63,866 nt of DNA, filler included, from Guillardia theta CCMP2712 (GCF_000315625.1; 5 parts of 5 records of this genome joined end to end with filler, not necessarily neighbours in it), one strand, 5' to 3'. Positions 1 to 30,621 are shown, counted from the whole stretch's first letter. The notes: generated from the letters alone by a model not told the origin. A program made the numbers and translations.

Positions 1-48
1 TCAAAACCATTAATAACTTAAGGTGGATCATCGAATCCTGATGTGCCA

Positions 49-630
49 ATGGCACCAGCAGGAGGCAGTCAGTTCAGCATGATTGGTTCTGCATTTTCCG
101 CCCCACTCGACTTGGACTCGATCAACGTCCAGGCCTACCTTGGAGCCAAGTTAGAGACCAAGACACCCGAAAAGAGGGAAGAGATCAAAACATTGCTTAA
201 AATGACAGAGAAATACAACGAAATCAAGGAGCGTATGATCAAAAAAACGATTACCATGCTAGAGAATGCATATGAAACTACTATAACCCCAACCACGAAG
301 AAAATGATAGCTTTGATCAAAGGTCTACTTCTATTCAATAAGACCATCCGTGTCCGTGGCAATACAAACACATCCCTTGCCAAGGCACTGAAGGCAGCCG
401 CGAAGAACCCGACCGGGGAGAAGAAGGAGAAGAAACAAGCCAATACAGCAAACACCCCGTCGCACAAGCTCGCCAAAGAGCGCGGTGTAATACCCCCGGG
501 CAGTAACAAAACAAAGAAGGGGAAAGGGAAGGGGAAAGGGAAAGGGAATGGAAACGGTAAGGGAAAAGGGAAAGGGAATGGAAAGGGAAAAGGGAAAGGG
601 AATCAGAGAGGTCAGGCAGCCAAGAAATAA
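49..630 (+). CDS. Hypothetical basic protein with C-terminal (KG)n tail, possibly nucleic-acid binding
   Basis: Open frame from ATG 49 to TAA 630; Lys-rich, ends KGKGKGKGKGNGNGKGKG...; near the window edge. Confidence 0.6.
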   Translation: MAPAGGSQFSMIGSAFSAPLDLDSINVQAYLGAKLETKTPEKREEIKTLLKMTEKYNEIKERMIKKTITMLENAYETTITPTTKKMIALIKGLLLFNKTIRVRGNTNTSLAKALKAAAKNPTGEKKEKKQANTANTPSHKLAKERGVIPPGSNKTKKGKGKGKGKGNGNGKGKGKGNGKGKGKGNQRGQAAKK

Positions 631-662
631 TGGGAAGAATGGCACGCCCACTCTTTTGGTCC

Positions 663-672
663 GTATTTAAAG
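663..672 (+). promoter_or_regulatory. TATT-type promoter box GTATTTAAAG
   Basis: TATT starts 49 nt before ATG 713; GTATTTAAAGCCATGGGG is nearly identical to GTATTTAAAGCGATGGGG at 27691. Confidence 0.65.
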
Positions 673-712
673 CCATGGGGAGCGGTATCGGAAGAGCTGG
701 GAGTGACAAGCC

Positions 713-1489
713 ATGCCCACCTACTCCAAGCAAGATGGCAAGATCTACAAAGGCAGCTGGAACAAGGAGAACATGCATTACCAGACCTTCAAGAAGGCCC
801 TGGCGGACCACCAAATCGACCACTCCAAGATCATCTTCAAGGCAGACGGGTCGGTGATGGCCCAGGAGCTCGACGCATTGCCTATCTGGAGGAGTGACCG
901 GGTCGATGTCCTGGCAAACATGCACGATGGTGACTACCTGTACCTCCATATGGTGAACATCAACAACATGAACGCCGACAAGAAGTACGTCCACTTCTAC
1001 ATCCTGAAGAGCAACGCGGAGGTGGAGCTCGGCAAGGCCGGCATCACCGAGGAGCAGAAGGCCATATGGACCAAGCGTAAAGCATACGACGAGAGGATGA
1101 TGAACGAGGCCAAGGCACTCGCCATGCAAGGCAAGCTTTTAAAATGGCAGACAAGATTGTACAGCAAGCCCATCGATCCCAAAGACATACAGGAAGGTGA
1201 CTTTGATGAAGTTTCCATGTGGAATGCAGCCACGGTCATGCCAACGCGCTACAACCTGGATTATTGGATCATACTCTGCAACGAGAACAAAGCCAAGAAG
1301 GTGTCCACCCCCAAGTTGAAGCAGCTCAAGCAAGAGAAGAAGGCAAAAGAGGCCATGAACGCCAACCCACAAGCCATGGTGACGGGAGCGTCGCAGTTCA
1401 ACGGCGGCATGGATTCGGACTTGGAGCTTTCGGAGGACGACGACATCTCGGGCGCGCTGAACTCGGCGGCCCGCAACCTCTACATGTAG
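713..1489 (+). CDS. Hypothetical viral protein (258 aa)
   Basis: GCCATG start, strong G/C third-position bias, upstream TATT box, AT-rich spacer after the stop. Confidence 0.85.
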   Translation: MPTYSKQDGKIYKGSWNKENMHYQTFKKALADHQIDHSKIIFKADGSVMAQELDALPIWRSDRVDVLANMHDGDYLYLHMVNINNMNADKKYVHFYILKSNAEVELGKAGITEEQKAIWTKRKAYDERMMNEAKALAMQGKLLKWQTRLYSKPIDPKDIQEGDFDEVSMWNAATVMPTRYNLDYWIILCNENKAKKVSTPKLKQLKQEKKAKEAMNANPQAMVTGASQFNGGMDSDLELSEDDDISGALNSAARNLYM

Positions 1490-1561
1490 ATTCCCATATC
1501 ATATTATCATCATAAACGTTACGAATTTTACTCTCATGTTAGTTTAGAAAGACTTAGAAAC

Positions 1562-3008
1562 TCAGAACGAGTCGGCGTCCTCCACGCTGGGCGCGGCCCT
1601 CTTGCGGCAGGTCTTGGCCTCCTGGGCGGCGTTCCCCATCCCGGGGACGGAGGGGGCGCGGGAGGAGGAGAGGTTGAGCTGCATGCAGAGGTAGTTGGGG
1701 ACGGCCTGCATGTCGAGGTCCACGGCGTAGCCCTCCGGGTTGAGCTTGGGTCCGAGGTCGATGTGGACGCGGCAGCACTTGGGGACGGGGTAGGACGCGT
1801 GGTAGGGCTGCCAGTCCATGGACACCGATGGGTCGACCGGGAGCTCCTTGGAAGGGTCCGACAGGATGCGGAGGTCGAGCCGGACGATGATCTCCCGCTT
1901 GAGCTCCTTGCCGTCCTCCTCGAAGTTGAAGAAGCGGTGGGTCTCGTGGACGAGGCAGCGCCGCACCGCGTCGAAGCTGATCTTGGCGTTGCCGTCCTTG
2001 CGGATCACGACGGTGCTGTCCCGGGTCTGGGGGGCGTGGAGGAGGAAGCGGAGCACGTCGTCGTCCGTGCCGGCAGAGACGTCGATGCCGAGCAGACGGA
2101 GGAAGTCGATGATAGGGGCGGCGCGGTAAACGAGCCTTTTCTTCCACGTGTCTTCATCAACCTTGTAGGAGACCCAGGATTTGACGACCATCAGTTGCAG
2201 GCAACCGCAACTCGCGGCGACCTCGAGCAGCTGGCACGCGCGCTTCACGGTNNNNNNNNNNNNNNNNNNNNNNNNNNNNNNNNNNNNNNNNNNNNNNNNN
2301 NNNNNNNNNNNNNNNNNNNNNNNNNNNNNNNNNNNNNNNNNNNNNNNNNNNCGTGACGCCGGCGCCGTCCTCATCGACGGAGGCCCGGAGGAGGCTGGAG
2401 ACGCTCCTCAGGAGCATCACCTCCCCGCCGTTGCTGAAGAGGTAGTTGGAGCAGGGGCGGCAGCCCTCGGGGGCGTAGGTCTTGCACACCTCCGTGATGG
2501 TCTTCTGCTCCTCGAAGGTGGCGGGGAAATCACCCATCGCGGGTACGAAGGAGTACAGCGTGAGCGGGATGATCTCGNNNNNNNNNNNNNNNNNNNNNNN
2601 NNNNNNNNNNNNNNNNNNNNNNNNNNNNNNNNNNNNNNNNNNNNNNNNNNNNNNNNNNNNNNNNNNNNNNNNNNNNNNNNNNNNNNNNNNNNNNNNNNNN
2701 NNNNNNNNNNNNNNNNNNNNNNNNNNNNNNNNNNNNNNNNNNNNNNNNNNNNNNNNNNNNNNNNNNNNNNNNNNNNNNNNNNNNNNNNNNNNNNNNCTTA
2801 CGGCGCCCTTGTACTGCTGGTTGCTCTCGTGCTTGTCGAAGGAGTAGATCATCAGGCCGCGCCTCCCGTCCGCATCGACATGGATCTCACTCAGGAACTC
2901 GGCGTTCTTGAGCGGCTTGTCCTCCAGCGGCGCCTTGCCCCAGCCCGCGGAGAAGGGCGCCAGCACCACAAAGTGGCTCGGCAGCGACCTGGAATCGCCG
3001 CCCGACAT
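1562..3008 (-). CDS. Hypothetical viral protein interrupted by assembly gaps
   Basis: Three GC3-biased coding segments (MSGGDSRSLPSHFVVL..., EIIPLTLYSF..., TVKRACQLLEV...DADSF*) separated by N runs; true start may lie in the 3020-3360 gap. Confidence 0.7.
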
Positions 3009-3360
3009 CGTCTTCGCCTNNNNNNNNNNNNNNNNNNNNNNNNNNNNNNNNNNNNNNNNNNNNNNNNNNNNNNNNNNNNNNNNNNNNNNNNNNNNNNNNN
3101 NNNNNNNNNNNNNNNNNNNNNNNNNNNNNNNNNNNNNNNNNNNNNNNNNNNNNNNNNNNNNNNNNNNNNNNNNNNNNNNNNNNNNNNNNNNNNNNNNNNN
3201 NNNNNNNNNNNNNNNNNNNNNNNNNNNNNNNNNNNNNNNNNNNNNNNNNNNNNNNNNNNNNNNNNNNNNNNNNNNNNNNNNNNNNNNNNNNNNNNNNNNN
3301 NNNNNNNNNNNNNNNNNNNNNNNNNNNNNNNNNNNNNNNNNNNNNNNNNNNNNNNNNNNN

Positions 3361-3370
3361 GTATTTAAAA
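3361..3370 (+). promoter_or_regulatory. TATT-type promoter box GTATTTAAAA
   Basis: 67 nt before ATG 3429; directly abuts an N gap. Confidence 0.5.
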
Positions 3371-3428
3371 AAAAATAAAAAAAAACAGGAAAAAAAAATC
3401 TAGGGGCGGGCTTCACTCCCCACACAGC

Positions 3429-3617
3429 ATGGTGATGGAGCAAGAGGAGAAGGAGAAGCGAATCCGCTCCCTCGCGCTCTCCATCGAGCTCATCAAGAAC
3501 AACACAACCTACACACGCACCGACGGTATCCAGCAGAGCTTCAACTACCGGGTGTCTGTCAACTCCCCCTCGGGGTCTTTCTTGGGAGTCACGCAAACCA
3601 ATGACCCGATATTGTAA
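3429..3617 (+). CDS. Small hypothetical protein (62 aa)
   Basis: ATG ORF with coding-like codon usage downstream of a TATT box. Confidence 0.55.
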   Translation: MVMEQEEKEKRIRSLALSIELIKNNTTYTRTDGIQQSFNYRVSVNSPSGSFLGVTQTNDPIL

Positions 3618-3637
3618 TTGAAGGATCAAGCTTCGTT

Positions 3638-4306
3638 TTAGGTCTTGTCTGGTTGTTTAAGAGCGAACATCATGATGAAATGAAAATGATATCCTGAAGT
3701 ATGCTGCTGTATGTTATCCAAAAAGTTGCTGTAATGAAATTTTATTCCGAATCTTTTGTTGATCTCTTTTTCCATATCTTTCATTTCACGTATTATTTTA
3801 TCGAGATGAGACAATCTGTACTTCATTATCATATATGGGTCATTCAATGAATGGATATACAACAAAGCACCTATATGATTCTCTATGCTGATTGAAGTTA
3901 CGTTCAATATATCATTCTTTCGTTTCTGTACGATATCAAAAAGTTTTCCACGTTCGTTCAATTCTTCGTAATAAGCATACAAGGATTTAGTCAAATAACT
4001 AAGGGTTCGATTCAATGATCCATTTGTAACGAAATTCGCATTTCTGAATTTAAGTATTTTATCAATGATCTCATCAAGATTATTCGCATACTGTTCAATG
4101 TTCATAATGTCATTGTCCAGATTATCAATGATTGAATTTAAAACTTGATTTATCTTTACTAGATCCACTTGCAAAATTTGTTTTAGATCATCTTGCATTT
4201 CTTTCATCATTTTCTGGTACAGATCATGAGCAGTTTCCAACTTTTCATAGATGTCATTCTCGCTGAGCATCATTCCCATGTGCTTCTTGCACTCCGCGTA
4301 ATCCAT
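3638..4306 (-). CDS. AT-rich helical/coiled-coil hypothetical protein (222 aa)
   Basis: ATG at 4306 (MDYAECKK); TATATAAAA on the minus strand at 4355-4363; much lower GC than its neighbours. Confidence 0.75.
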   Translation of the reverse strand: MDYAECKKHMGMMLSENDIYEKLETAHDLYQKMMKEMQDDLKQILQVDLVKINQVLNSIIDNLDNDIMNIEQYANNLDEIIDKILKFRNANFVTNGSLNRTLSYLTKSLYAYYEELNERGKLFDIVQKRKNDILNVTSISIENHIGALLYIHSLNDPYMIMKYRLSHLDKIIREMKDMEKEINKRFGIKFHYSNFLDNIQQHTSGYHFHFIMMFALKQPDKT

Positions 4307-4344
4307 CTCTCTCTCTCTCCACACACACACACACACACACACAC
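4306..4344. repeat. (TC)n(CA)n compound microsatellite
   Basis: Seen directly, between the TATA box and the ATG of the 3638-4306 gene. Confidence 0.9.
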
Positions 4345-4434
4345 TCACTCACCGTTTTATATAGTGATGATCACCCTGTGATGGGCAGCATGCAGTGGGT
4401 ACAGGTCTGATTTAGCCAGTACCCCTACAGAGAC

Positions 4435-4869
4435 TGACATTCAAGGGTGGGGTACTCTGTGGTACTAAATTGAGTAATTTTATAATTACTAATAAAGCCC
4501 AGGCCCCCAGGGAAGGCCCCCCCCTGGCCAGAATCTGAAAACCGTTAAACCGTTAAACCGTTGAAAACCGTTAAAATTTATATTTTGCATATATTTCTTG
4601 CATTAGTAAAAAAGTAGGACAGGTAGTAGTAGTAGTAGTAGTAGTATAGTAGTAGTAGAGTAGTAGATAGTAGTAGAAGTAGAGTAGAGTAGAGTAGAGT
4701 AGAGTAGAAGTGTCCTACCATTGTCCTACTCTTAACGGTTTAACGGTTTAACGGTTTAACGGTTTTCAGATTCTGGCCAAGGGGGGGCCTTCCCTGGGGG
4801 CCTGGGCTCTATTAGTAATTATAAAATTACTCAATCTAGTACCATAAATCACCCCACCCCTGAATATCA
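4435..4869. repeat. Long imperfect inverted repeat (arms ~4435-4574 and ~4732-4869) with four AAACCGTT units per arm and an AT-rich/(AGT)n/(AGAGT)n spacer
   Basis: The reverse complement of the right arm aligns with the left arm with only scattered mismatches and small indels. Confidence 0.92.
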
Positions 4870-4907
4870 CCCAACGTGGAGGGTGGGGTACCGTGTCCTA
4901 CCGCGTC

Positions 4908-6279: not shown

Positions 6280-6414
6280 TCCTCCCTCTGGCCTTCCCGT
6301 GGTCCTCCCGCGTTTATGTAGCGCCGGGGCGCGGCGGGGTGAAACCTGCCTTGTGGGGAACGGCGCGGAGATTATATAAGCGCGCGGCTGGGGCTGGATG
6401 GTACTGATTCTATC

Positions 6415-7098: not shown

Positions 7099-7260
7099 GC
7101 ATGCGTAGAAGAGTAGGCAAACCCTTCTTTTCCCTCTCCCGCTCTCACTTGCGTAAGGAATTAAAGTACGAAACGATATCCCCTAGTATCCCCGGGTCGC
7201 GGCAGGGTGAAACCTGCCTATATAAGCGCGCGGTTGGGCCTGCATGGTACTGATTCTATC

Positions 7261-7632
7261 ATGGGTCCTAAAAAGCAGAAGATGTACGAACGCAAGCAGT
7301 CGCTGGCTGAGATCATATCCGAAAGCCAAGAGACAGGCGACTTGGATAAAGCATTGGATGCCGTGCGTCAATTTATCAAAAAGACATCTACCGATCCTTT
7401 CAAGGACAAATTTGATACTTTCAAGGATCCTTTCAAGGACAATTTTGATCCTTTCAAGGATCCTTTCAAGGACAAATTTGATACTTTCAAGGATCCTTTC
7501 AAGGCCAGCGCGAAGAGTGTCAAGGCCAGCGTGAAGAATACCAATTTAAACGCCAATGATCTTGCCTTTACCAAGACTGCCTACGACAAGCTCTCCAGTG
7601 ATGATGATGGAGAATGGGAGGAATTGAGTTGA
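7261..7632 (+). CDS. Paralogue (123 aa) with DPFK/FxDxF repeats and C-terminal WEEL motif
   Basis: MGPKKQK...SSDDDGEWEELS*; TATATAAG at 7219-7226; ATG 7261 is homologous to ATG 6415. Confidence 0.8.
   Translation: MGPKKQKMYERKQSLAEIISESQETGDLDKALDAVRQFIKKTSTDPFKDKFDTFKDPFKDNFDPFKDPFKDKFDTFKDPFKASAKSVKASVKNTNLNANDLAFTKTAYDKLSSDDDGEWEELS
7393..7503 (+). repeat. Coding 33-bp tandem repeat (~3.4 copies), DPFKDKFDTFK
   Basis: Unit GATCCTTTCAAGGACAAATTTGATACTTTCAAG. Confidence 0.9.
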
Positions 7633-22800: not shown

Positions 22801-25800
22801 ACTGGCCGCACTCGGGGGGCATGCTAAGGGACGGGACTTACCTGACCGCCTCTGCTCAGGACTGTCCCGTCCACGACCGCCTGCGCGAGTTCCAGCTGCG
22901 CTACATCCCTGTGCAAGTCACAGCGGATGCCGGGAGGACCACCCTGGACGAAGGCGGGGAATGCCACATGGGGAGGATGGTCAGCGTGCCTTCCACCGTC
23001 CCGCTCGGGGGGCAGTGCCACCGCTACAACTACTCCCACCTCGAGTGCTCGGTGACGGCTATCTCCGGGGGAGAGGGTGCAGTGACGGAGGTTAGCTACC
23101 ACCACCTGGATGTTCCTAGGTCGACCATGTACCTGGAACAGCTGTCACGGAACTTCCGCAGGCGCTGCGGGCAGTGCCAGGCTCCCCCCAAGACGGAGAA
23201 GTTCGTCAACAGGGCTGATCGGAGCATCCATGGCGTCAGCTACCTCGCCGACGGCCGCTTCACGAGCTTCGGCGTGCCCGTCAGGCTGTCCCTCGCCCGC
23301 ATGCTGGCCCGGGACATACGGCAGCAGGTATGCGGGAATCAGGCGCAGTGTTCCCTGCTGGACTCCGTGGCGAACACGAACGAATGGACGATCGACAACT
23401 TCATGGGGAAGTACCTCCGTGACATCGCCGGGCTCTTCACCTCGGGAGGGGCTGCGGGGAGCATCACCCCGCCTGCTCCCAGCCTGGTGGACGACACGAT
23501 GTTCTGGGGGCGCAACTGGACCTTCTGCACGGAGACGGAGCGCAACCTGACGACCGGGCAGTACCGACGGGAGTGCTTCGGGAGCATACCGAAGGACACC
23601 TGGATGCATCCCTCGCTGCGCAGCCCTTCCTGCAAGTCCGCGATGCTGTCCAGCACCCCCACCCGGGCGGCGATGATCCCTGTGAGGATCTGCACCCTCG
23701 ATGCCACGATGAACGACCTCTGCATCCGCATCGGTGACTTCATCCAGCGCATCCAGGCGGCCAACTGCAAGGCAGCGGGGGTGTGCAGCGACCAGAAGTT
23801 CCTATACAACCCGGCGGCTTACAGCATCTCGAACCAGCAGTTCATCACGGAGACGGTCCTGGACTTTTACGAGTCGGTGTCCGCCGGGGTCTGCGCGGCG
23901 TCCTACACCACGGGGATGGTGGCCGAGGTCATCGCGCAGAACAATGTCATGAGGGGCAAGTGCCCGGCCCAGATGCTCGTCCCGGTGCAGACCACCATCT
24001 CCCAGCTGCGCCAGGTCGTACAGACGCTCGTGAAGCTGGCGTATTACGTTGCAATGATCGTGATAAATTTCCTCAGGCTGGTCACCGGACAGTCTTCCGA
24101 GCAGGTGATGCCAGACGTCTTCCGGTGGCTCGATCTGTTCATCAATGAGGCCAAAGTTCTCTTCGACCAGCTGGGAAACATGCTCTTCGGGATCATCCAG
24201 GCGACACCCTTCGGAGAGCAGCTAATGATCATCATCCGGATTATCTGCACACTCTTGAATTGGTTCATCATGTACTTTTGGCTCCCTGTCATGTGTCCCA
24301 TTCTTCAGGGTGTGGGTCATGTCTCCCTCTTTATCGCTAACATCCTTAAGGGAATTGCGGAGATATGCATCCTTGGTATATGCCCTTTTGAGTGGATCAC
24401 ATACCAGATCCCGTTAAAGGTCGGTGAGACGCTCGTGGGTATGGACTGCACCCCACGAGAGGTATTGGACTGCAACATCGGGGATAACTACCAGCCCAGC
24501 GCCGGGGACGGGACGCTCCCCACCCCGACGCGCTGCTGGGCCAGCTACTTGAGCAGCGTGGCCGATTCCGGGAAGTTGTCGTGCTCTGGTGCGGACACCT
24601 GCGCCAGGGGGTTGACCTCGGACAATGCCGATACGGTAGTGTGCGATGCGTGCCCCTTCGGTGCCGACGTCACCGTCACGAACCGTTTCGGCTGCGACCC
24701 CATCCGCAAGCAGTGCTCCTGCAATGTCCAGCAGATCTCGCAGACACCCTGCATGACGCACGAGCAGTGCATCAACCAGGCGGGAGCTACCTGCGTGTTC
24801 ATGAATAGCCGCGTGGAGCAGACGTTTGGGAACATACCCTGTGGTCAGTGCACCAGCCAGCCCATGTGTGTGATCCAGCCTGGGCAGACCTACGGGTCTT
24901 GCTCTTGCTTCTTGACGAAGGTGGTACCGGAGTCTTGCTCTGTGAGTGAGGTAGGGATGAATGTTCAGTACAAGCTATCCGGGCTGTGCCTGGCGCAGGT
25001 TTCAGGTAGCATGGGCGGCTTCACCGCCGAGACGAGCTCTACCTACACAATTAGCTACAACAACCTCCTTGCAACGCCGTGCTACAACGCGGATTCTTCC
25101 AGGATCTATTGCTACAGCGTCTACAGCTCGGCCTTCAGCTACGCTCCCATGCTCGTCTCCCTGGGTGTCAGCGGGCTCTCCGGTTCCGGCTCCCAGTCCC
25201 CCTACGGCAGGCGCTTGCTCGGCATCGAAGGCGCTCCTGACTTTTTCAGCCACGACGAGCTCTGCATGGACGCCTGGGACGACTTTCTCGCCACCAACCG
25301 CAGCACGAGGGTGATGGCCGGTTGTGTCACCCGGTTTGCCGCGACCTACGACGTCGTGTCGGCGCACGGGCTGCTGGACTACATCCCCCCGAACATGTTT
25401 GTGAGCTGGGCGGACTTCCTGACCACCGTGGGTGACAGGCCGGACTCCCTCCTGGTCCTCCTGTACTCCCCTGGCCTCGCCTTCGAGCTCCTCCTCCGCA
25501 CCCCCCTGTACCACCGCCTGGTCAGGCACTACCGAGCCTGGACGGCCGCGCTGACGGAGCTTTACCTCGACGTGACGGTGCACCGCAGCATCCAGCCCAA
25601 CGGCGGGCTGCACTATGAGGTGGACGCAGAGGGCGGCGTGTTCATCCATGGGCACAACATTAGCGAGTTTACACTCATTCTCCTCAATCTGCTCCACAGG
25701 TTTAATCTGAGCTCGAATACATTGTACCCTGGTAACGTATCCCTTGCCATCCGCAACCAGGAGTCTGTCCGAAAGTTGCTGTCTATGACAGCCACCTCGC

Positions 25801-27053
25801 CATTCGCCACGGAGCTGCTCTACAACGGGACAGGGATACAGCAGAGACTTTCACGCAGGCATCTCCTCATGTTTACATCGTGGAAGACCCGCATGGAGGA
25901 GGTCCAGCGCTTTACGGGCACTGTCGCCTTGAACGACGGGGTCCCGATGGCCGTGGGAAGAGAGACGGCGGCGGACTGGGTCGACAGCCCGTTTGCCTGG
26001 CCGCTCCAGTTCGACTTTGGTGGGACGATCTTCGAGTGCCCGCTCCTCGCCAGGACGTTTGAGTTGACACGCGATGCATTTACCAACACATCGCTGTACT
26101 ACGCCAACGGGCACACCCTTAAAGCAACCCCCCGCAGCATCGTCTCGGGCAGCTGGCCCTTCAGCAACCTCCCCTACCGCGGTCCGGTGCCTCCCTTGAA
26201 GGAGCCCACCCGTCAGACCTTCCTGAACATGCTGGTGTTCCAGGCATTGAAATGGATCGACCAGACCCCCTTCAACCGGCAGTTCTTCTACGACCTCTTC
26301 AGTGCCTTACCCGGCATGCTCAGGGATTTTGCCCGCTGTGACCGCCAGGCGGTGATGCTCTGCAGTCGCCACCACTACACGCTCCTCGTCTCGGGCTTCG
26401 TAATCGCCGTGGTGTGGTCTGGAGTGTCGCTCGTGGCGTCTTCCTTCCGCATCCCGTACCTGACCACATTCCTCTGGACCTCCTACCCCCTCGTTGTGAT
26501 TTACTACGCCTTTGGAGTGTCGCCCCTCTGCCTCCCAATGGTTCCCACCTGCATCTTCCAGGACTTCGTCGAGGTCCTCAACTTCTTCTTCCCCGCCACA
26601 CTCCGCTTCCCCGACAGTCTGCAGAAGAGCCCCGGCTGTCTGGACGCAGCCCCGAATGCCACGGCCAGGGAGGACTGCCTGCTCTCCTGCTCCCTCCAGC
26701 CCTTCGAGTACGTCTCCTGGGAGTCCGAGGTGGCGTGGTGGACTTGCTTCGCCTCTACCGGCCTGTGTCGGTCCGTCGATGGCGTGGTGACGAGCATGCC
26801 CCTCCTCAACAAGCTGACCTCTCTCCACCGCGATCTCGTCGTCAAGGCCGCCATCGTGGAGGGCGAAAACGCGGACATGATCCTCGCCCAGTCCGTCTGC
26901 GCCGCGCTCAACGTATGGAGGGTCATACCCATCGTGATCCTACTCTTCATCGTCATGTACGCCTTCAGCGTCATCGCCACCTTCCCCTTCTTCGTGGTCA
27001 ACGAGTTCGTCCGGCTCGCGATACAGGGCGTCATCATGAGCCACACGGACTGA
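7818..27053 (+). CDS. Giant (~6,411 aa) cysteine-rich multi-pass membrane glycoprotein of unknown function
   Basis: Uninterrupted 19.2-kb frame with GC3 bias. Hydrophobic N-terminus from ATG 7818 (MYILLFVAGLVLVLVV). Hydrophobic helical clusters near 7.8-8.3, 10.7-11.5, 13.2-13.6, 24.0-24.4 and 26.4-27.0 kb. Abundant Cys and NxS/T sequons; RRLL, RKLL and RHLL near the C-terminus. Confidence 0.93.
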   Translation: MYILLFVAGLVLVLVVERVVHSVLSLVVDRSMRPTKRYASMSLVGTFFQNLFAYFFFAFNVLAMTLGFIARNLLWFGFLVLVMAVLSMVLDFAPGLVAEYVYVYNAGLGTYIHFFIVLPVQLVELLFSHVTALYNCIMWIVNGVFLSVLAPSFLADNVNVGWLPRFGTSFFKFSGEVVLSISSYLVNVMACATNPLGGVPRGGTGSFLILNATGSVECFEPGMINLDLITPAGSFRDMCLYMARFVVFSCPAANAVIDLLTFPLSDMNLYKGIHCIVNALLGLFVQLPFVTLHRCRFGATLPMLGVHQRILCAPDFRPAMDLSVAGARYLGRTVDNWLDSSLVILETLFTGSAPQCDPVPIPLSYSDDDSRALFGGNFRAVVGLTPGMYAVTDGISTEYNIFYKQVTREIAYRNWPFPVEPAYGIAAVKYGELPEGDVAGDLTTGMLGCECLDVPGVGAQITCAIVPYLSGSNMPSTTGSVASMIQDYLKSNSIQQAVNSSNATQRIPVTFSVPSSSQYATCKRLKIQVESLRWPATRVSATSTSPGAWNQMGAAAQVNILDVAREVRADAAIYVMPQCPFSAVPDPSCIPGFEGFSCYPFCVGLHLTGTINQGIVLYGANDWRDSVQYLLRDCGVGQGAVGSISPSALSLSPLAFGPPVRYTVPKGVVYNAAAQSAWDPATQSCVSSADVNSRVSVNLTTVYAFPPDQSEPTIREKFQPFVFASDVVLTAYQDGLGKWSVKVSRIFGEDALSFRLVDLPGLIPANDICLGSPSCEEPFQPSLIGIPYAYQDYPQLYNPSTTSQWAVFYATNPNPEVYEAYSRYCAGLPTKFGIVMDSSYGQVRVWKFNAFALDQSETSGAAVMTWTFEGFNRVQEVSNCGALYNMSVVRLEYINEYNVAVTVLQASMQSFDVVTRMPRPGFDGFDYVVYFINPTTNEGPSESMFSELVPQSLLSEGLLCPSQRRMPEVGSSLAEAWAGVLYFMRLPLNAVVLFPAIFSGGDWPRFTECSAVALGHSLLLGCGKGILNVDNAFEAWHRASFLFYHSFVKIATFGQSLSPSNPILLYTRQAVVGSTVAATYLTNGAPAFMAKLLGSVNFNRPFADMSRAMLFGLPSWIRIFGRVVRFSSTSFQMFLRFLERLIMEYVLKLASGQGVDSGIFYILTAMRDDVDQLMVQPAREICGGVSLIFGYTNPPATAMRFFCTVGAETALGLFDFMNVFLIDFPVVDCVCRGGQGTVFRDHLEQQCYKWAPVGYRPLLNAMLEQSAGDRRLMCSMLVERTNGNLSTAFDGVFTALYEGYQSIGSMFDYFLVFIDSSSGTCSNYYSSDYVMAILPEPIDYFTMCYRTRLCELACGEQYDAFHTALAQVAGGKPLVYSMNQTVSVESRFFSSGGEFYGTDRLPFDVMALVEMSGCNRVCYGDVGISGPPSQPDRCVSIAGIDSHLKIAVKAYCLPSSLKTGIRPSAKILDGSFRGTAIDYEVDGSEAWSAGIARLQYASVDLVDSIGRSNILVVTTEQEVSLVSDQRQSYTLLKTIPSSQKAVLVTDIYSIEEVVSFPSDDIADIFVRATTTDWSVPHEPSTGPVCLHVRLDTQRFATEAILKTSAFTIKRCAGAVNVFSTIRTPYVTCLGPSCSGVALFPTEDGAEVKVCDRSEGALTCVAVPSGGHLASDLGLSSKNLPQVSMTQDKRFIRRVPRVAQSSLTGWNGAGQQSSMTVFAVAGQKVTTTWLSDIRLRVDGGVWAGTRSYSSTYQMLTTLKKNCSVADCTGCMGYPTLQRLCYAASQCAVARCIGTEVNFQRPLCAIGSVVSKLMRQALLTMQNVYLIFSQSVALIVDASTGQITNRVVIEWPDQVFFSAMCDMKDITVSSVGVLMSLVNGITMKAQAILSSTEVGLVPTDPSFNAKATLSMASMTNLFSQILLLPLYVFIAAQKTFVCTTNSMTAILNSDLLGNFQLVIGDPSIQAVSGDVAGICLTQVFEQDVQAQALGGSDFIGGAAAQVTDRLIDAGMTLQLAPAYHLTDAVLAYASGVTYGFMDVLQTIDQKHCRLPDVTTETIYRCACGDLAHRVSPERRQEGIREQAFWCVGSLQLLGPDGKPRLVYNPYTFEELVTASRTKMSTYLTCVGRGQGDCSRHLPTLPLLARQDVDPGTVLTRCRSNYVNKVWDAGAAYLTGFRNYPDLAKVGYIIQQSYQPSLIPSSVVTCLEQTLRLGTGNDACLLGWLTLTNRTRENYFRYEVAGFVSDNSDFADVDGCEVFTGPSSNPDPAKAYQFEQCLNTSNAAQCQLPQYIWSGRTTNRVPVASLHSVSYPPGSTQLYDAAREEHLKIKKEATEYFTEALLQWENPELEASFFSVEGDILHQLFDCYFMGPFASAELWPSGGTRSVRSMLYYRNSPSDRTFMVPSANCKPGVDACCPQQSPFSCGGPARNAIIHGFIEKLKNSPGGPTNEVLARAVQDGVKAKLREFKSIFTNVNSFGCPCPGGANSVECCSKDNPGVWASKEMQAIDYSVLESQSVLDVIFDLAAEYIETEVYFNRTLFEAFAEPLTDSQRAQLRDESMFDPSSPVSGYDESEVLEAGSKNRSLWDLCVDLVSQIFATLPLDAERASFGASSYAYEHDPTRSPSSSRFADSIEETVSYILGRAKEDSPFYWGTGGGDLRYMPSKSARCRTRGSLVRPVTNGTLNPLDGAYIPLGIDDTGVGVRYTVAGRLAGLQLPKYGVLGQNASGFTQRCYCGWTTPNGMLCRVDPLVCATARLASLTSLPGGAVEDFQAICQAGSYSTFGEWVSVYRVAEAAWDASWSCPDMQLSDVWGVVNDLQLDYWMANIDDSFVDYNYNLQDVLHLGTAGLRLSNMEWLQRNSHLFLRPAARRYKLYNPDTDISVALEDCVDETIDSNAANGFQSYVGSLSSVYSHFKDRLMPVLRSTHTSGSEAFCTRFVLELARLEALVYVDQAVGAQEPNPEISVQRVAVDLWRTRCMTQVRMVGLCNLHGVFDRVPPNHSIQGSHCPFTITGTCGKMYLTSDCIVYCDGVFSEPCSCAEAAGVPCSGYAWDVSLNATCPLAFDPRGISDMDIERSTLYAPTVFPEEELLASGLSPEENLALAERILAHEEQYITTFIPKASDKSLMEDALITGSKAGEGVAFGKPLGNREYCDAVADYWPEGWIHPSGYHVTVGCRHEETAFRGFDTWMSVEYDSVRGEKYLQLDARRLRNETLLKNYFGSAASCSAASYGMPMFETNNARLQARWKDGQRYDPTQPIGRFVPGDTTDYIQTGVAGGWDQVPTQGRIGKHTRPSSGLLHHWIPEMATGATATAVWPASGQTFGRYELPEGTVPEWGPGCGQLPLRTCRNDTDCPALHGAAVRCLRSWSESRGEERDGVCAVQGSAPLQCYQNHHCRDSGQVCSAWGRCVDGYVLMRNKVGYPVEMHSHSEKCGEESLGYSPWQVVPDFLPRHGMCGFREWFEYETMRARATGAASPGTLAAVNPDVLWYSTSPYVTDAVVKQGLFERGILKVHPHTCDRDYAYSFPSCAGNPSSVFNEVGGAVDQPGEGRTMRTYRRAAAGWELDLCSVDHMERQRTGFLYPFSGVAGEDSFAGVQNSLSLCSNLQLCSLQEFYVQGYHTLGRKINRVQKDGSCIDSGNCLATPYQLQDGLFCGAAGYLKALDPSDVARRYDPICRVDPLVTPLVRMFCTADRASISSACDLDPSYATVSNVQELCRLWDEDYNYQSLPNIDRALNRALLRFFKRGFTTWDEYQRRATCAATVFNLMGVYAGQQTQGTGGTQWYSVELEPGVPTYFPPYASLYVFRDASQMEIPAAWWVQCVLLDSSVNVELLESASTDQVPCRGWENAKTAGYQPQTVRDFLLSSPRVYLESGMNSPTNETQIALSIYDNLFEQVSLARHTVQGAMGGGEHRLSYVYYRTLKDLYLTDEDYNEFANAVDSGGNSNNDKVFKTNAVPRDDGTYPFYDDSDIPGIFQQVVNYMMSGSVRDGYFPPGSGVNRLSKAMGSFTKTSLSDGFLDLGPAYFDPSLGVLQYTLPTLAPSFFEAELDRILAGVLKQEDDLQDWKDIGLEYEYDAFKDYATLADLSTGTMRMTKCLNVNFNTSEPGVNQNFIRPFVRLLDQNAGGEDIYVCDSDVGYDRRTGQSCGLMHDSLDDNCSTRFVYLREYNNGEGIVVQTHCKQPLFVRDLVEDDKRKIADLSRLDLDTANPAGAICLRTDSTCLQGGGLEGSSVGVVSVVPTLGVEVQTFYREMQSGDPNSDKFYGPLYQKASTRWYPAWVDCYGVPGVNKSNLQAWTGWDRARVEQAREILLARENAEGSSPNLQVLDLEAIWNSSSTRPVSFSVRCNVSSCTTSTGVSFDCGSDGQCNVRMDNMAVHAMSLRLTEPSVYFCASSEAQARERCPARRTNDSVLVEIRNNLWYCKADCVRKTLLKYVGKHSIKYRGLREDVLGFTPSDRSAIGLSDTSNARDGYSQKDSFRLVHHLMRKQIFGSGNALPGSIYNSVWMKPSALSASFMDRHSLYPFQALTLYDYVNYVEQADTMRKQPLDTCINQAVDVTECSKDQITGQRVHRSSLEQCASELKRRSSLVANPGYAVLVKLRGEELTSSHLLHWAAASRPERDRFVDWVTSAGRCSETRQSEAVCYLTGDGNVFTINPWLGGGFNIHEACDTVPLPEQLTRVISADCFPQGSGTCRNYTALVYTPCVSKNNQPPSRTDIFTSASNNLCEKAPRPNSTCLQRQGLYGGGEGEGMTDLYTRPLYSMPYSGIFGMEPNPSYHSRTPSNGILRQSFMDLGGGFFVADLQTLEDGMTDNLLPACMPLWYPTKADGSPDLAGRDPCSNNSMDWLSSYSVDSRVDYDLNRVDLGNTVAEGQLPPWDCPVREMHFWGGGDASFRPRAPYGPRAGVMFFEASNMGGSAGNGMSNPVQPYGVEMPGLQRPYFASEICSCSSAGDCSFQVVSKESCSILSTVDFLSGEKWYTQQAHAGAAGCRTSTDWPHSGGMLRDGTYLTASAQDCPVHDRLREFQLRYIPVQVTADAGRTTLDEGGECHMGRMVSVPSTVPLGGQCHRYNYSHLECSVTAISGGEGAVTEVSYHHLDVPRSTMYLEQLSRNFRRRCGQCQAPPKTEKFVNRADRSIHGVSYLADGRFTSFGVPVRLSLARMLARDIRQQVCGNQAQCSLLDSVANTNEWTIDNFMGKYLRDIAGLFTSGGAAGSITPPAPSLVDDTMFWGRNWTFCTETERNLTTGQYRRECFGSIPKDTWMHPSLRSPSCKSAMLSSTPTRAAMIPVRICTLDATMNDLCIRIGDFIQRIQAANCKAAGVCSDQKFLYNPAAYSISNQQFITETVLDFYESVSAGVCAASYTTGMVAEVIAQNNVMRGKCPAQMLVPVQTTISQLRQVVQTLVKLAYYVAMIVINFLRLVTGQSSEQVMPDVFRWLDLFINEAKVLFDQLGNMLFGIIQATPFGEQLMIIIRIICTLLNWFIMYFWLPVMCPILQGVGHVSLFIANILKGIAEICILGICPFEWITYQIPLKVGETLVGMDCTPREVLDCNIGDNYQPSAGDGTLPTPTRCWASYLSSVADSGKLSCSGADTCARGLTSDNADTVVCDACPFGADVTVTNRFGCDPIRKQCSCNVQQISQTPCMTHEQCINQAGATCVFMNSRVEQTFGNIPCGQCTSQPMCVIQPGQTYGSCSCFLTKVVPESCSVSEVGMNVQYKLSGLCLAQVSGSMGGFTAETSSTYTISYNNLLATPCYNADSSRIYCYSVYSSAFSYAPMLVSLGVSGLSGSGSQSPYGRRLLGIEGAPDFFSHDELCMDAWDDFLATNRSTRVMAGCVTRFAATYDVVSAHGLLDYIPPNMFVSWADFLTTVGDRPDSLLVLLYSPGLAFELLLRTPLYHRLVRHYRAWTAALTELYLDVTVHRSIQPNGGLHYEVDAEGGVFIHGHNISEFTLILLNLLHRFNLSSNTLYPGNVSLAIRNQESVRKLLSMTATSPFATELLYNGTGIQQRLSRRHLLMFTSWKTRMEEVQRFTGTVALNDGVPMAVGRETAADWVDSPFAWPLQFDFGGTIFECPLLARTFELTRDAFTNTSLYYANGHTLKATPRSIVSGSWPFSNLPYRGPVPPLKEPTRQTFLNMLVFQALKWIDQTPFNRQFFYDLFSALPGMLRDFARCDRQAVMLCSRHHYTLLVSGFVIAVVWSGVSLVASSFRIPYLTTFLWTSYPLVVIYYAFGVSPLCLPMVPTCIFQDFVEVLNFFFPATLRFPDSLQKSPGCLDAAPNATAREDCLLSCSLQPFEYVSWESEVAWWTCFASTGLCRSVDGVVTSMPLLNKLTSLHRDLVVKAAIVEGENADMILAQSVCAALNVWRVIPIVILLFIVMYAFSVIATFPFFVVNEFVRLAIQGVIMSHTD

Positions 27054-27065
27054 AGGGGACGGGTT

Positions 27066-27075
27066 GTATTTAAAC
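27066..27075 (+). promoter_or_regulatory. TATT-type promoter box GTATTTAAAC
   Basis: 45 nt before ATG 27112. Confidence 0.65.
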
Positions 27076-27111
27076 GAGTTGTGATGGGTATGTTTGTCGT
27101 ACTGAAGAGGA

Positions 27112-27591
27112 ATGCATATTAATCACAAAATATACGCTACTTTGATTGCTTCTCGCGAGCGCGATGATGCCATAATGCGTATGGTAGAGACGTTAATATC
27201 CACCCTTGCTTCCGAGCCCCGTGTTTCCAGGCCCTTCGATTCCAGGGGTCGTACTCGCAAGGAGGCAAAGCTGGCCACTCTCGAGATAAATGATAAAGTC
27301 TACTTAGAGCGCATCGAGGAGGTTCAGGAGTTCATCGACAAGAAGAACAACGGCGACGAGACGCCATGGAGTAAATGCCCATGTTTCTACAGTATCAAGT
27401 ATCATACCAAGAAGGAGGTGTCTTTCGAGTCTTGTCAGGAGTACATCAGCATTATGTCATCCAAGATCATTGCCAATCAGCAGGAAATCATCAACTCCAC
27501 TGTGTTTGAGTCACGCAACCCCATCCGCTTTGTGGTTAAGAGCCACGACACCAAGCGTCGCAAGCTCAATGTGTTCGAGACCGAGGATTAA
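27112..27591 (+). CDS. Hypothetical protein (159 aa) with C-terminal KRRK NLS-like motif
   Basis: ATG ORF, upstream TATT box, AATAAA at ~27632. Confidence 0.8.
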   Translation: MHINHKIYATLIASRERDDAIMRMVETLISTLASEPRVSRPFDSRGRTRKEAKLATLEINDKVYLERIEEVQEFIDKKNNGDETPWSKCPCFYSIKYHTKKEVSFESCQEYISIMSSKIIANQQEIINSTVFESRNPIRFVVKSHDTKRRKLNVFETED

Positions 27592-27690
27592 GGTGTCATG
27601 CGAGAGGCAGTAGCCGTAGTGACTAAACTGCAATAAATGTTCAAAAATAACCTGTCTCACATGAACTGCTAAGATACACGCAGATTGCAC

Positions 27691-27700
27691 GTATTTAAAG
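27691..27700 (+). promoter_or_regulatory. TATT-type promoter box GTATTTAAAG
   Basis: 44 nt before ATG 27736. Confidence 0.65.
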
Positions 27701-27735
27701 CGATGGGGTGGATATGAGTGTCTTTCCAAAGAAGA

Positions 27736-27987
27736 ATGCTCTCCGCACCGACTCAACGCACTACCGCACTCACCGACCGTCAGGTCGATCACGACAAGAT
27801 CGACAGAGAGGTTGATTACAACAAGCAGAGGATCAAGTTCTTGAAAGAAGAACTGGGCAAGGCACAAAGGAATCTGCACACCATGCATGGAGACGACTAT
27901 CTCCACTACGTTGCCTTCATCGAGTTCTGCAAGAGGTAGATCGCTTTTCACAAGAACAAGATCAACGAGCTGCTCACCCCGAAGTAG
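27736..27987 (+). pseudogene. Small coiled-coil protein with a probable premature TAG at 27937-27939
   Basis: Frame continues FCKR*IAFHKNKINELLTPK* with coding-like codons to TAG 27985-27987, then AATAAA at 28019. Confidence 0.5.
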
Positions 27988-28049
27988 AAAGCGTGTAGTG
28001 TAGTGTGTACTAAAGCACAATAAACGTTCAGAAAAATCACGCTACATCT

Positions 28050-28616
28050 TCACTCGAGGATTGGATGGAACAGGAGGTAGTCCGGGGTGATGGGGTGCTT
28101 GTAGGGGAGGAAGGGCATACCGAGCTTCATCCGGATCTGTGAAATGACGTTGTACATGTCCGTGTAGGCGTGGAGCATGTCCCCTTTGTCGTGCATGATA
28201 AGGCTTACAATCTGTTCCTTGTCCAATACTTTCTGTTTCCTGTGTATTATGTCCTGCACAAGCTCCCATGTATTCTGATCCACGTTGTACAGGGCGGTGA
28301 ACAGGGGTGCGAGCTTCGCCTTCCTCTCCTGCATATCACGGATGAAGTTTCGGAACATGTCGCGCTGCTCGACGAATTTCTCCACCTCGTGCTGCACAAT
28401 CATGATGGTCTCCCTCGGGTACCTGGTGTGTATATGCTCCGTGCTGTTGTCCTTGATCAGGAGGACGATGTCGCCGTACTTGAAATCGCCCTTGCTGATC
28501 ACCTTGATCATGTACATGCGCGAATCCCACATGTAGTCGAGCGCGATATGCAGGTCTAGCTCCGATGTCATTTCTTCAGAATCCGGTCCATCCAATTCAG
28601 TCCCTCCCCGTAGCAT
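28050..28616 (-). CDS. Hypothetical viral protein (~188 aa)
   Basis: GC3-biased frame; first ATG at 28616 (alternative ATG at 28571). Confidence 0.8.
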   Translation of the reverse strand: MLRGGTELDGPDSEEMTSELDLHIALDYMWDSRMYMIKVISKGDFKYGDIVLLIKDNSTEHIHTRYPRETIMIVQHEVEKFVEQRDMFRNFIRDMQERKAKLAPLFTALYNVDQNTWELVQDIIHRKQKVLDKEQIVSLIMHDKGDMLHAYTDMYNVISQIRMKLGMPFLPYKHPITPDYLLFHPILE

Positions 28617-28714
28617 GGCAACGCGCCAAATAAGAAAAAAAAGAAGCTTCTTTTTGGTCACTGGGGCTCGGATGGGAGGACCTGGAAAAGAGGAATGGTC
28701 AGCGGGGGACGGTT

Positions 28715-29698
28715 ATGACAAAGCCCTGCGAGCAATGCTTTGTCTGCAAGCGCTGCAAGCAGCTCAAGGCGCGGAAGCCTGGCTGCACCACCTGCCGCAA
28801 GTGCCCGGATTGCTGGGACACGAGGGTGAGGTGCTGGAGGGCGGTAAGCGACCCTTTCGTGGTTCCGAAGGGGTTGGCGGGACACCAATGCCGCTGGCAG
28901 TGCATCGACTTCGACCTGGCGGGGTGCACCGAGTGCGGGGCGATCCACCGCTGCGACGCGGCGACCTGCCCGGTGTTCGAGGAGGAGGACAGCCACGTCT
29001 GCACCATCACGGGGAACTGCGTGCGGCTGAAGCGCTTCACCCACGACGAGTTTATGGACAACGTGGTCATCTCCGACCTCCCAGGGCCAGTGGAGCGGGA
29101 GATGCGGCTGCTGACGGATGAGCGGGAGGTCAGGGAGAACGTGGAGTGGCTCCTTTCCTCCCGCACGGCGCGGCAGAGCTTCGAGCAGGAGCGCGGCCGC
29201 ATGGAGCAGAAGCACCGGCACCTCCTTTGGAAGCTGCTGCGGGAGATCAAGCTCCGGGGCGGCATACCGAACCTCTGCCAGGTCATGACGCAGATCCTGC
29301 ACGCCACCAACAAGATCCGAGTGTGCAACACCAGCTTCCAACCCGAGCTGAGGCAGGAGGTCGTCGGGCGCTGCGTGTACAGCATCGTGCGCTTCCTGAA
29401 CCTCATGGGCCAGCGCTTCCGCTCCGCGCTCGGCGCGCTCAAGACCTCCACCCTCGTGGTCGGCACGCTGTACCTGATGCGGATGGGGATCTCCATGCAC
29501 AACATCACCCTGCTGCCCCGCATGCCGCAGCTCCAGCTCATCCTCCCGATGGAGACCCACCTCAAGACCTTCTTCCAGATCAAGTGCAAGAGCATCACCG
29601 AGGTCGAGAACCTCATCAAGATGTGCCTGCGTGGCCTGAGCCCCGCCGAGCTTGAGAAGATGGGATTCACCATGGCGGAGGAGGTGCTTGGGATGTAA
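28715..29698 (+). CDS. Zinc-binding protein resembling herpesvirus UL92/ORF31/BDLF4 late-transcription factor (327 aa)
   Basis: CTECGAIHRCDAATC-x8-HVCTITGNC (~28925-29020) fits the CxxCxxxHxCD...C...VCxxTG pattern I recall for the UL92 family; extra N-terminal CxxC repeats and a helical C-terminus. Confidence 0.65.
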   Translation: MTKPCEQCFVCKRCKQLKARKPGCTTCRKCPDCWDTRVRCWRAVSDPFVVPKGLAGHQCRWQCIDFDLAGCTECGAIHRCDAATCPVFEEEDSHVCTITGNCVRLKRFTHDEFMDNVVISDLPGPVEREMRLLTDEREVRENVEWLLSSRTARQSFEQERGRMEQKHRHLLWKLLREIKLRGGIPNLCQVMTQILHATNKIRVCNTSFQPELRQEVVGRCVYSIVRFLNLMGQRFRSALGALKTSTLVVGTLYLMRMGISMHNITLLPRMPQLQLILPMETHLKTFFQIKCKSITEVENLIKMCLRGLSPAELEKMGFTMAEEVLGM

Positions 29699-29755
29699 AA
29701 AAAAACGAGTGTTTTGGCGCAGAGAATGTCAAATGATGTTCCAAGGCTACAATAA

Positions 29756-29941
29756 ATGAGGGCGTGGAGGTACTTCAAGGTCAAGATCATTCCCATCACG
29801 CGGAAGTGTGCCTTCTGCCCGCTCCCCAGGGCGCTGAGGCCGTGGGAGCTGTGCCCCTGTCCCTACCTCAACACTCGCAGGTGCATCTTCGAGAGTGAAT
29901 TAAAGAAAAATGAAAAACGCATGCAGTGTGAAGGGAAGTAA
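29756..29941 (+). CDS. Small Cys-containing hypothetical protein (61 aa)
   Basis: ATG ORF filling the intergenic space, CxxC...CPC. Confidence 0.4.
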   Translation: MRAWRYFKVKIIPITRKCAFCPLPRALRPWELCPCPYLNTRRCIFESELKKNEKRMQCEGK

Positions 29942-29955
29942 ATAATTGAAGTTTA

Positions 29956-30327
29956 TCAGAAAAACCCCCAATGCCTCTTCCTCTTGACCCTGATCACATC
30001 CACCTCCGTCATCGTCACGGGCGCGGTGGACTGCAGCACCTTGACGTGCACGGAGATCCGCTTCCCCTCCACGGGGGCGACGCCGACGTTCTGCACCCGC
30101 ACCGGGTTCGCGTCGCGGATGAGCTGCAGGTCCGTCAGCCCCACCATGGGGCTCGCCGTCTTTGCCAGGATCACAAAGCCGTCCTTGGCCGTCCGCACCT
30201 CGTAGTCCACGAAGCACAGGTCCCTGGAAAGCCCCTGCATCACCGCCAGCACGTTCTCGATCACTGCGCGGTCGTCCGCCTTGATGCCCGACAGCATGCC
30301 GTCGATCGGCAGGATCGAGCTCGACAT
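29956..30327 (-). CDS. Hypothetical protein (123 aa) with C-terminal KRKR NLS-like motif
   Basis: Strong GC3 bias; GTATTTGAAG box 44 nt upstream on the minus strand. Confidence 0.85.
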   Translation of the reverse strand: MSSSILPIDGMLSGIKADDRAVIENVLAVMQGLSRDLCFVDYEVRTAKDGFVILAKTASPMVGLTDLQLIRDANPVRVQNVGVAPVEGKRISVHVKVLQSTAPVTMTEVDVIRVKRKRHWGFF

Positions 30328-30362
30328 ACCGGGGTGTCAATGCGTGTGGGAGGGAAGTCGGG

Positions 30363-30372
30363 CTTCAAATAC
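30363..30372 (-). promoter_or_regulatory. TATT-type box variant GTATTTGAAG
   Basis: Reverse complement of CTTCAAATAC; same 44-nt spacing as the 27691 box. Confidence 0.55.
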
Positions 30373-30621
30373 ATCTCAGGGCACGGCACACAGAAAACAG
30401 AGGTCTTAATATTCGAACGGGTTTTAATGTATCGGTACGCTACACCTACGTTACGTCTACTCAGAAAATCCAGTATAAGTAGACGGCCACGATGATCTGT
30501 ATGCCATACAAGATTCTTACGGCTGATCCGCCTTGTTTAGTCTTGAAAATATCGATATATTTAGGATTCATGTGGCACACCTTTCCATGTGACGGAGGAA
30601 TCGTTTTTAACTCCACCCCAT

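Follow-up and report, generated by a model that had tools for sequence, protein, structure and literature searches.

A mirusvirus-like element, probably integrated, with a UL92-family gene in the assembly of the cryptophyte Guillardia theta

We analysed positions 1-30621 of a window, that is, a whole stretch of 63,866 nt of DNA (filler included) from the cryptophyte Guillardia theta CCMP2712 (GCF_000315625.1), in which scaffolds are joined end to end by N-TTAATTAATTAA-N linkers. We read these 30.6 kb as a copy of a mirusvirus integrated in the nuclear genome of G. theta, one of several copies of different ages, and we give this reading a probability of roughly 0.65. Mirusviruses infect plankton and are relatives of the herpesviruses. 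Taken over both an integrated and an episomal state, it is very probable that the stretch is mirusvirus DNA. We make this strong call because the stretch carries UL92, a core gene of mirusviruses, because a metagenome contig sharing its gene order bears a predicted capsid gene of herpes type, because G. theta has a related capsid gene, and because of the mirusvirus clade and capsids published for this host by Zhao et al.

Viral identity of the stretch

An initial annotation of the window, made from the sequence alone, had described a large DNA virus contig with a herpes-related gene and proposed Mirusviricota as first candidate. The herpes-related gene is indeed there. Precisely, the open reading frame (ORF) at 28715-29698 (plus strand) encodes a protein of 327 aa with a Cys/His-rich N-terminal domain and a predicted cyclin/TFIIB-like helical domain, and it matches the Pfam family Herpes_UL92 (PF03048) over the Cys/His domain, with an E value of 4.4e-7, above the cut-off. 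A profile search with UL92 gave 534 relatives at 50% clustering; 47 out of 100 aligned members of the family matched Herpes_UL92, and none of the 100 matched the Pfam models of VLTF3. Relatives were confirmed in 4 of the 98 candidate stretches of a metagenome scan, no UL92 relative was found among the viral contigs of IMG/VR, and the ESM Atlas gave only leads under 0.9. In a UL92 tree of 44 rows, which left out herpesvirus and nucleocytovirus references, the copy of the window fell in a clade of 11 rows (100/99) together with sequences of G. theta, Hanusia and the metagenome contig L001. The UL92/ORF31-like cluster is a core cluster, present in 66.7% of the metagenome-assembled genomes of mirusviruses and in 0% of nucleocytoplasmic large DNA viruses (NCLDVs) in the Figure 3 source data of PMC10132985, and an orthogroup containing UL92 spans 313 genomes in the supplement of PMC12768974. 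A main-text literature search for UL92 in mirusviruses gave none, yet the gene appears in the supplements of two papers; as a mirusvirus gene UL92 is already in print, hence not new. Mirusviricota keeps its place as first candidate, on account of this core gene, absent from nucleocytoviruses, and of the gene block beside a herpes-type capsid gene on L001.

On L001, relatives of UL92 (61% identical), of a 61-aa ORF (73% over 37 aa) and of a 123-aa ORF (64%) stand in the order and orientation of the window, and a heliorhodopsin gene lies within this three-gene block. The product of a 1,230-aa gene located 6 kb upstream of the block models as a major capsid protein (MCP) of herpes type. This predicted model covers 1,200 residues (mean pLDDT 63.7). 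In BFVD its first match was an unnamed entry, followed at ranks 2-3 by the MCPs of ranid and sturgeon herpesviruses (E from 2e-4 to 1.5e-3); after re-alignment the top 29 rows were all herpesvirus capsid entries, with Z from 10.0 down to 5.7, the best of them with an rmsd of 5.1 over 349 aligned residues, and the next unrelated row had a Z of 4.0. Identity to herpes MCPs is merely 6-9%. Of 5,114 candidates, 663 proved to be relatives of the 1,230-aa protein, some of them in records of Hanusia and Rhodomonas; the IMG/VR viral contigs gave none. In G. theta, the product of GUITHDRAFT_118897, on another contig, is 62% identical to it over 1,250 aa, a divergence about the same as for UL92. Positions 116-13386 of L001 (14.8 kb) hold the capsid gene, which is intronless, a 309-aa possible structural gene, UL92, heliorhodopsin and the 123-aa ORF. 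L001 is, judging from its sequence, an intron-poor mirusvirus close to the element in the stretch.

Relatives of the genes in the stretch, at 45-100% identity, were found on at least seven other contigs of G. theta. The gene models GUITHDRAFT_117646, 117647, 117653 and 117656, on a contig of 243,622 bp, match the ORFs starting at 49, 713, 27112 and 28715 at 95-100% and in the same order; other relatives are on contigs of 100,616 bp (95%), 40,583 bp (63%) and 259,815 bp (55%), and further ones, at 45-53%, on contigs of 84,586, 35,237 and 21,253 bp. Close relatives (92-96% aa) are also present on environmental contigs. Paralogues occur in records of G. theta and Hanusia phi, and eukaryotic genes on the neighbour scaffolds, which points to a unicellular eukaryote as host, the link being given by co-assembly rather than by infection. 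Among the matches listed, the named homologues of UL92 and of the giant protein described below are gene models of G. theta or Hanusia. Zhao et al. reported E03 capsids in three cryptophyte assemblies including G. theta, and the G. theta row of their table lists MCP, triplex 2 and protease but neither portal nor triplex 1 (PMC10827195). Because the host is shared and the G. theta capsid is close, the element is probably a mirusvirus of clade E03.

The stretch is not a whole 30-kb contig, as had been stated. A contig of 67,094 bp on record carries five of its proteins, and the first ORF runs on upstream in a 376-aa paralogue; therefore, the window edge probably cuts through a 67-kb scaffold, of which the stretch would be the final 30.6 kb. 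The contig end at a linker, claimed as well, holds for the right end, where an artificial scaffold linker (N44-TTAATTAATTAA-N44) occupies 30622-30721, and does not hold for the left end, which is the window edge. We rejected GUITHDRAFT_148843, on the 67,094-bp contig, as a real spliced gene, for it joins three separate ORFs or antisense pieces of the stretch. The dense ORFs are borne out: the gene list spans 93% of the non-N bases over the 30.6 kb, and sisters of the probably 67-kb scaffold reach 260 kb.

The structural model of the UL92 protein is confident (pLDDT 88.1), and TFIIB and cyclins resemble the C-terminal half of it with Z about 6; on this predicted fold, the UL92-like protein likely acts in a TFIIB-like way. 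The model had no match in BFVD at E<=0.001, and its sequence matches in PDB were rejected as designed helical repeats. Herpes UL92 is predicted in PMC12197705 to replace TFIIB in a complex on TATT promoters, and TATT late boxes are described in PMC4893493. Polymerase II-type signals, seen by the initial annotation, were found in our analysis as TATA-type boxes, which precede 9 of the 13 starts examined at a distance of 42-68 nt; six of them are GTATTT and three TATATAA. GTATTT precedes 6 of 13 starts against a mean of 0.09 in base-composition shuffles, with none of 5,000 reaching 6, the motif having been picked after inspection. The GTATTTAAA box at 663-671 (plus strand), a TATT-type TATA variant, is located 50 nt upstream of the ORF starting at 713. 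In a thin search of the literature we found no description of TATT-like promoter boxes of the element. On the contig L003, at 5543-14094, a UL92 relative occurs with a DcpS/HIT decapping-like gene, a 3'-5' exonuclease and a weak cyclin-fold gene, the last of which is possibly a second TFIIB-like factor.

Integration and its alternatives

Between a recent endogenous element and a persistent nuclear virus, the two states proposed for this DNA, the balance tilts to the endogenous one. We favour integration because there are many diverged copies, two frames appear broken, the element seems nearly silent, and a truncated UL92 gene lies near an integrase fragment on the contig L002. Multiple diverged copies (45-100%) occur together with apparent frame breaks near 23 and 5235. 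The frameshift near 5235, noticed before, is confirmed in the multi-pass membrane protein gene at 4908-6279 (minus strand): the third-position GC switches frame there, and the relative on L003 is a single frame of 468 aa (24% over the N-terminal 129 aa, pairwise E 2e-6, the C-terminal likeness being judged by eye). A programmed -1 frameshift was rejected, as a slippery heptamer is absent by eye and the L003 relative is single-frame. The second break, near 23, is judged against the 376-aa paralogue. On L002, at 77-5139, a truncated UL92 relative of 174 aa lies about 4 kb from an integrase core fragment; this suggests that a retroelement has inserted into a related element within the genome of a wild host.

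The read comparisons cover 11000-30621, and the runs X1, X2, X4 and X5 were left out as a possible source of the assembly. DNA run X3 (2021, second study) gave multi-kb pieces with 0 differences; the depth was 126-143 for these identical pieces and 58-79 for diverged copies, about twice, which is to be taken as a rough guide and not as a copy number. None of the X3 records extended over the ends of the stretch. The freshwater metagenome X6 covered 30 of 30 bins at 85-99% with short contigs, 93 out of 663 at no less than 99%, and run X7 gave a thin cover of 15 of 30 bins. In RNA run X11, 764 M letters (6% of the run) yielded just 20 reads, which were scattered and lay in both orientations.

Among the alternatives, the one that survives best, although we judge it rather unlikely, is that the mirusvirus is a non-integrated episome, or a persistent infection of the co-culture, with several genotypes assembled as separate scaffolds. 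In its favour, no junction is visible, the 19-kb ORF is intact, and the sister contigs of 190-260 kb are genome-sized. The environmental contigs with relatives at 92-96% aa, the cover of all 30 bins by X6 and the episomes known in other protists (PMC12606086; PMC10827195) point in the same direction. Two frame breaks and a possible premature stop are less expected in such a virus, as are relatives spread over at least seven other contigs of the species at 45-100% identity; RNA is nearly absent from X11, and the X3 depth, a figure given without host control, is just about twice that of diverged copies.

It is improbable that the stretch is a giant endogenous element of a nucleocytovirus, or another large DNA virus with an acquired UL92-like gene. 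In its favour, an NCLDV-like VLTF3 marker is given for G. theta in Table 1 of PMC5294986, and no duplodnavirus hallmark gene was found within the stretch; however, UL92-like genes are found in none of the NCLDVs of PMC10132985, the UL92 family matches Herpes_UL92 (47/100) and never VLTF3 (0/100), and the syntenic L001 carries a herpes-type capsid and heliorhodopsin. Double-jelly-roll capsid, A32 ATPase, PolB and VLTF3 had no match among 18 translated pieces, which cover 30.6 kb only. Herpesvirales, with their animal hosts, do not fit the cryptophyte context of the assembly.

The least probable reading is a host gene island or contaminating cellular DNA, and the synteny with the capsid-bearing L001 largely refutes it. 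Most ORFs are orphans and the left 7.8 kb are not clearly distinct from the host in tetranucleotide use, but no cellular family was found among the 18 translated pieces, the homologues are either unbroken single ORFs of metagenome contigs or gene models of similar elements in cryptophytes, and the neighbouring scaffolds differ, with RCC1, TUTase-like, caspase-domain and DUF4215 genes and abundant microsatellites. In the Pfam scan of these pieces UL92 was the sole match above the cut-off, and among the homologues listed for UL92 and the giant protein the only name of a cellular function is a kinase domain, located at the end of a single gene model. Microsatellites make up 0.5% of the stretch and 3.7% of the remaining window. 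The contrast with the host pieces claimed by the annotation is clear for 7.8-30.6 kb, where the tetranucleotide correlation (r) is 0.80-0.82 to the viral locus L001 and 0.35-0.69 to host pieces, and weak for 1-7800 (0.65 to L001, 0.53-0.66 to host pieces). Likewise, the description as intronless stands for the giant ORF, UL92 and the 123-aa ORF, which have end-to-end homologues; the gene at 1562-3008, interrupted by three N gaps, may or may not contain introns.

Several points weigh against an integrated mirusvirus. As for integration, no virus-host junction is visible, the left end being the window edge and the right end the linker; the contigs of 190-260 kb that bear paralogues have roughly the length of a whole mirusvirus genome and might be free or episomal DNA; the depth and RNA figures lack a host-contig control, which weakens the terms "low copy" and "silent"; and the frame breaks near 23 and 5235 could be assembly errors. 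As for the viral group, no capsid, portal or terminase was found within the 30.6 kb (Pfam on 18 pieces, PHROGs), so that the phylum call draws on one core gene and on neighbours located on other contigs. The quality of the L001 capsid model is middling at its mean pLDDT of 63.7, and Foldseek gave no match to it in PDB at E<=0.001 (the best, at 0.058, were herpes capsids). The TFIIB-like match of UL92 is middling too, with Z about 6, and tied with cyclins. GTATTT precedes only 1 of the 11 genes listed on L001 and 1 of the 18 on L003, and the box of the capsid gene on L001 is TATATAA; because of this, a herpes-type late switch made of UL92 and TATT boxes is only a lead. Finally, the giant protein has no PDB match by sequence and no Pfam match, its role being read from composition alone.

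The giant protein, the hairpin and the other genes

The 19-kb ORF had been described as intact, and its frame is in fact open throughout 7614-27053. The protein (7818-27053, plus strand, GTATTT box at -57) probably starts at the Met at 7818, because homologues align from this Met, and would thus have 6,411 aa rather than 6,479. It has hydrophobic segments at both ends, 3.4% Cys, largely conserved, and 38 N-glycosylation sequons, with RRLL at residue 5798 and RRHLL at residue 6013; these two RRLL-like motifs are aligned in all 14 rows covering the region, corresponding to 9 of 9 distinct clusters. Proteases of the SKI-1/S1P type cleave at RRLL sites. Nine relatives were found among 4,364 candidates, and the full-length ones have 5.5-6.6k aa and are 22-55% identical along their length; by these alignments the protein is a member of an unnamed family of cysteine-rich, predicted membrane proteins of 5.5-6.6k aa. 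We infer a putative processed envelope or surface glycoprotein. The element in the stretch is the only link of this family to mirusviruses. No match was found in the ESM Atlas for the first 2,000 aa and no internal repeats in 32 profile windows; a thin search of the literature gave no description of the protein, and the gene-cluster supplements on mirusviruses may list the family. Two G. theta gene models, P0163 and P0172, are paralogues in which a protein kinase domain is annotated as part of the same product, probably because the model ran into an adjacent viral kinase gene.

In the mechanism we propose, the virus would have reached the host nucleus and been retained there. Transcription of the viral genes would start from the TATA/TATT boxes lying 42-68 nt before the ORFs and would depend on a machinery of the RNA polymerase II type, in which the UL92-like protein would stand in for TFIIB as a viral factor. 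The giant protein of 6,411 aa would be a glycoprotein of the secretory pathway, anchored at both ends and cut at the two RRLL-like sites, most likely a precursor for the virion envelope or the host surface. The copy would be young enough for an intact 19-kb frame, yet its decay would have begun.

It is doubtful that the cultured cryptophyte carries a near-intact, inducible mirusvirus with circulating kin (92-96%), a UL92/TATT switch and an envelope made from an RRLL-cut glycoprotein of 6,400 residues; if this were true, the switch would trace the late transcription of beta- and gammaherpesviruses to an ancestor among protist viruses. Mirusvirus DNA in G. theta is already published, which caps the interest of the element; what it adds is the giant predicted membrane protein, the relatives close to it in the environment and the pattern of its promoters. 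PMC10827195 describes mirusviruses as still without an isolate, and a culture system described later has a thraustochytrid as host (PMC12606086). Being recent, present in several copies in a cultured and sequenced cryptophyte, and close to environmental kin, the element offers a practical setting for asking whether the mirusviruses of cryptophytes integrate or persist and whether they are inducible. The membrane protein of 5.5-6.6k aa is a candidate for their entry or envelope machinery, and the UL92 gene, along with the TATT-type boxes of the element, suggests a connection to late transcription in herpesviruses that can be tested.

A 435-bp inverted repeat is located at 4435-4869 (z -26.7, reached in 0 of 100 shuffles). 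It forms a hairpin with 131-nt arms that are 92% complementary, four AACCGTT repeats in each arm and a (GTA/GTAGA)n centre; the motifs GGGTGGGG and GTCCTAC recur just beyond the right arm (4881-4911). The hairpin may be an origin-like site or a foldback insertion, as a candidate. Under a reading as a miniature inverted-repeat transposable element, a target-site duplication was not found by eye; a 27-nt hairpin pattern was without match in the IMG/VR viral contigs, and no description of the hairpin was found in a thin search of the literature.

The first feature of the stretch (1-630, plus strand) is the 3′ part of a gene starting upstream of the window, with an in-frame ATG at 49 and a basic tail of Lys/Gly repeats, which is 100% identical to the 376-aa paralogue over 201 aa from position 25. 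It is followed by a 258-aa orphan at 713-1489 (plus), whose paralogues GUITHDRAFT_117647 and GUITHDRAFT 120179 are 95% identical, and by a high-GC3 gene without family match at 1562-3008 (minus), with gaps at 2252-2351 and 2578-2796 and a further gap just upstream (3020-3360). A 62-aa ORF at 3429-3617 (plus), also without family match, has a GTATTTAAA box 68 nt upstream. At 3638-4306 (minus) there is a 222-aa AT-rich orphan (GC 0.32, GC3 0.39, TATATAA at -57), which sits behind a (CA)n/(GA)n leader within an element of 60% GC and is possibly a recent acquisition. To the right of the frameshifted gene, two acidic orphans of 227 aa (6415-7098, plus) and 123 aa (7261-7632, plus, with a 33-bp internal repeat) form a tandem pair; the TATATAA promoter and the 3′ flank are duplicated in tandem at 6318-7718, and the two ORFs are alike at their ends only (MGxKKQK, EWEELS).

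Beyond the giant gene, a 159-aa orphan with a KRRKL tail is at 27112-27591 (plus, GTATTTAAA at -46; paralogue GUITHDRAFT_117653 99% identical), and a small ORF at 27736-27987 (plus, GTATTTAAA at -45) contains an internal TAG at 27937-27939. This stop, taken before as a sign of decay or error, is present, and the frame stays open for 15 codons after it, of which 13 end in G or C; a premature stop is merely plausible, no intact homologue having been retrieved. A 188-aa orphan is located at 28050-28616 (minus). After UL92 come the 61-aa Cys-rich ORF (29756-29941, plus), kept downstream of UL92 on L001, and the conserved 123-aa ORF (29956-30327, minus, GTATTT at -45), with a KRKRHW tail and 96-100% identity to environmental copies. 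The basic termini likened before to nuclear localization signals (MGRKKQK, KRRKL and KRKRHW) are present in the translations. PHROGs gave weak coiled-coil-type matches only, which were rejected, and Rfam gave 0 matches on the stretch.

On the other scaffolds of the window, the next host scaffold bears a caspase-domain (Peptidase_C14) ORF of 477 open codons at 36464-37897. A host ORF at 40238-40687 has a signal-like N-terminus and an LRLRGG motif, which we take to be typical of cryptophyte targeting sequences. A small scaffold holds an intronless 693-aa Cid1/TUTase-like nucleotidyltransferase (55992-58073), and a 4-kb scaffold two near-identical tandem copies of 332 bp (58496-59145).

Comparison with known systems

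Envelope glycoprotein precursors processed by SKI-1/S1P at RRLL sites are known, for example the arenavirus GPC. The giant protein resembles such protease-processed viral precursors in its signal or membrane segments, its Cys-rich ectodomain with predicted glycosylation and its RRLL-type motifs, and differs from them in being about ten times longer and without a match to a solved structure or to Pfam.

The UL92-family protein resembles UL92/ORF31/BDLF4 (PF03048) of beta- and gammaherpesviruses in the Pfam match over the Cys/His domain (PMC4893493, PMC12197705), and also in a predicted two-domain fold whose cyclin/TFIIB-like half fits the TFIIB position modelled in PMC12197705. It is longer, however, with 327 aa against about 200-230. 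In herpesviruses the late complex consists of six proteins acting on TATT late promoters (PMC4893493, PMC12197705); in the stretch UL92 only was detected, and not the TBP-like UL87, UL79, UL95, UL49 or UL91. The TATT-type boxes upstream of 6 of the 13 genes are like herpes late promoters, whereas such a box is rare before the listed genes of the relatives, the capsid gene of L001 being preceded by a canonical TATA.

With the E03 signals of Zhao et al. the element most likely shares both the host species and the viral family, the G. theta capsid being 62% identical to that of L001; PMC10827195 gives markers and scaffold statistics, beside which we saw no description of the genes on the scaffold of the stretch. 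In the thraustochytrid Aurantiochytrium limacinum, AurliV-1 is an episome and AurliV-2 a chromosomal integrant (PMC12606086). AurliV-1 is expressed and makes virions according to the same source, whereas the G. theta element is nearly without RNA reads in one run; in addition, its host is a cryptophyte and its copies are many, diverged and with frame breaks. As with AurliV-1 and AurliV-2, a mirusvirus genome would be kept in a cultured protist, and either state is possible for the element of G. theta.

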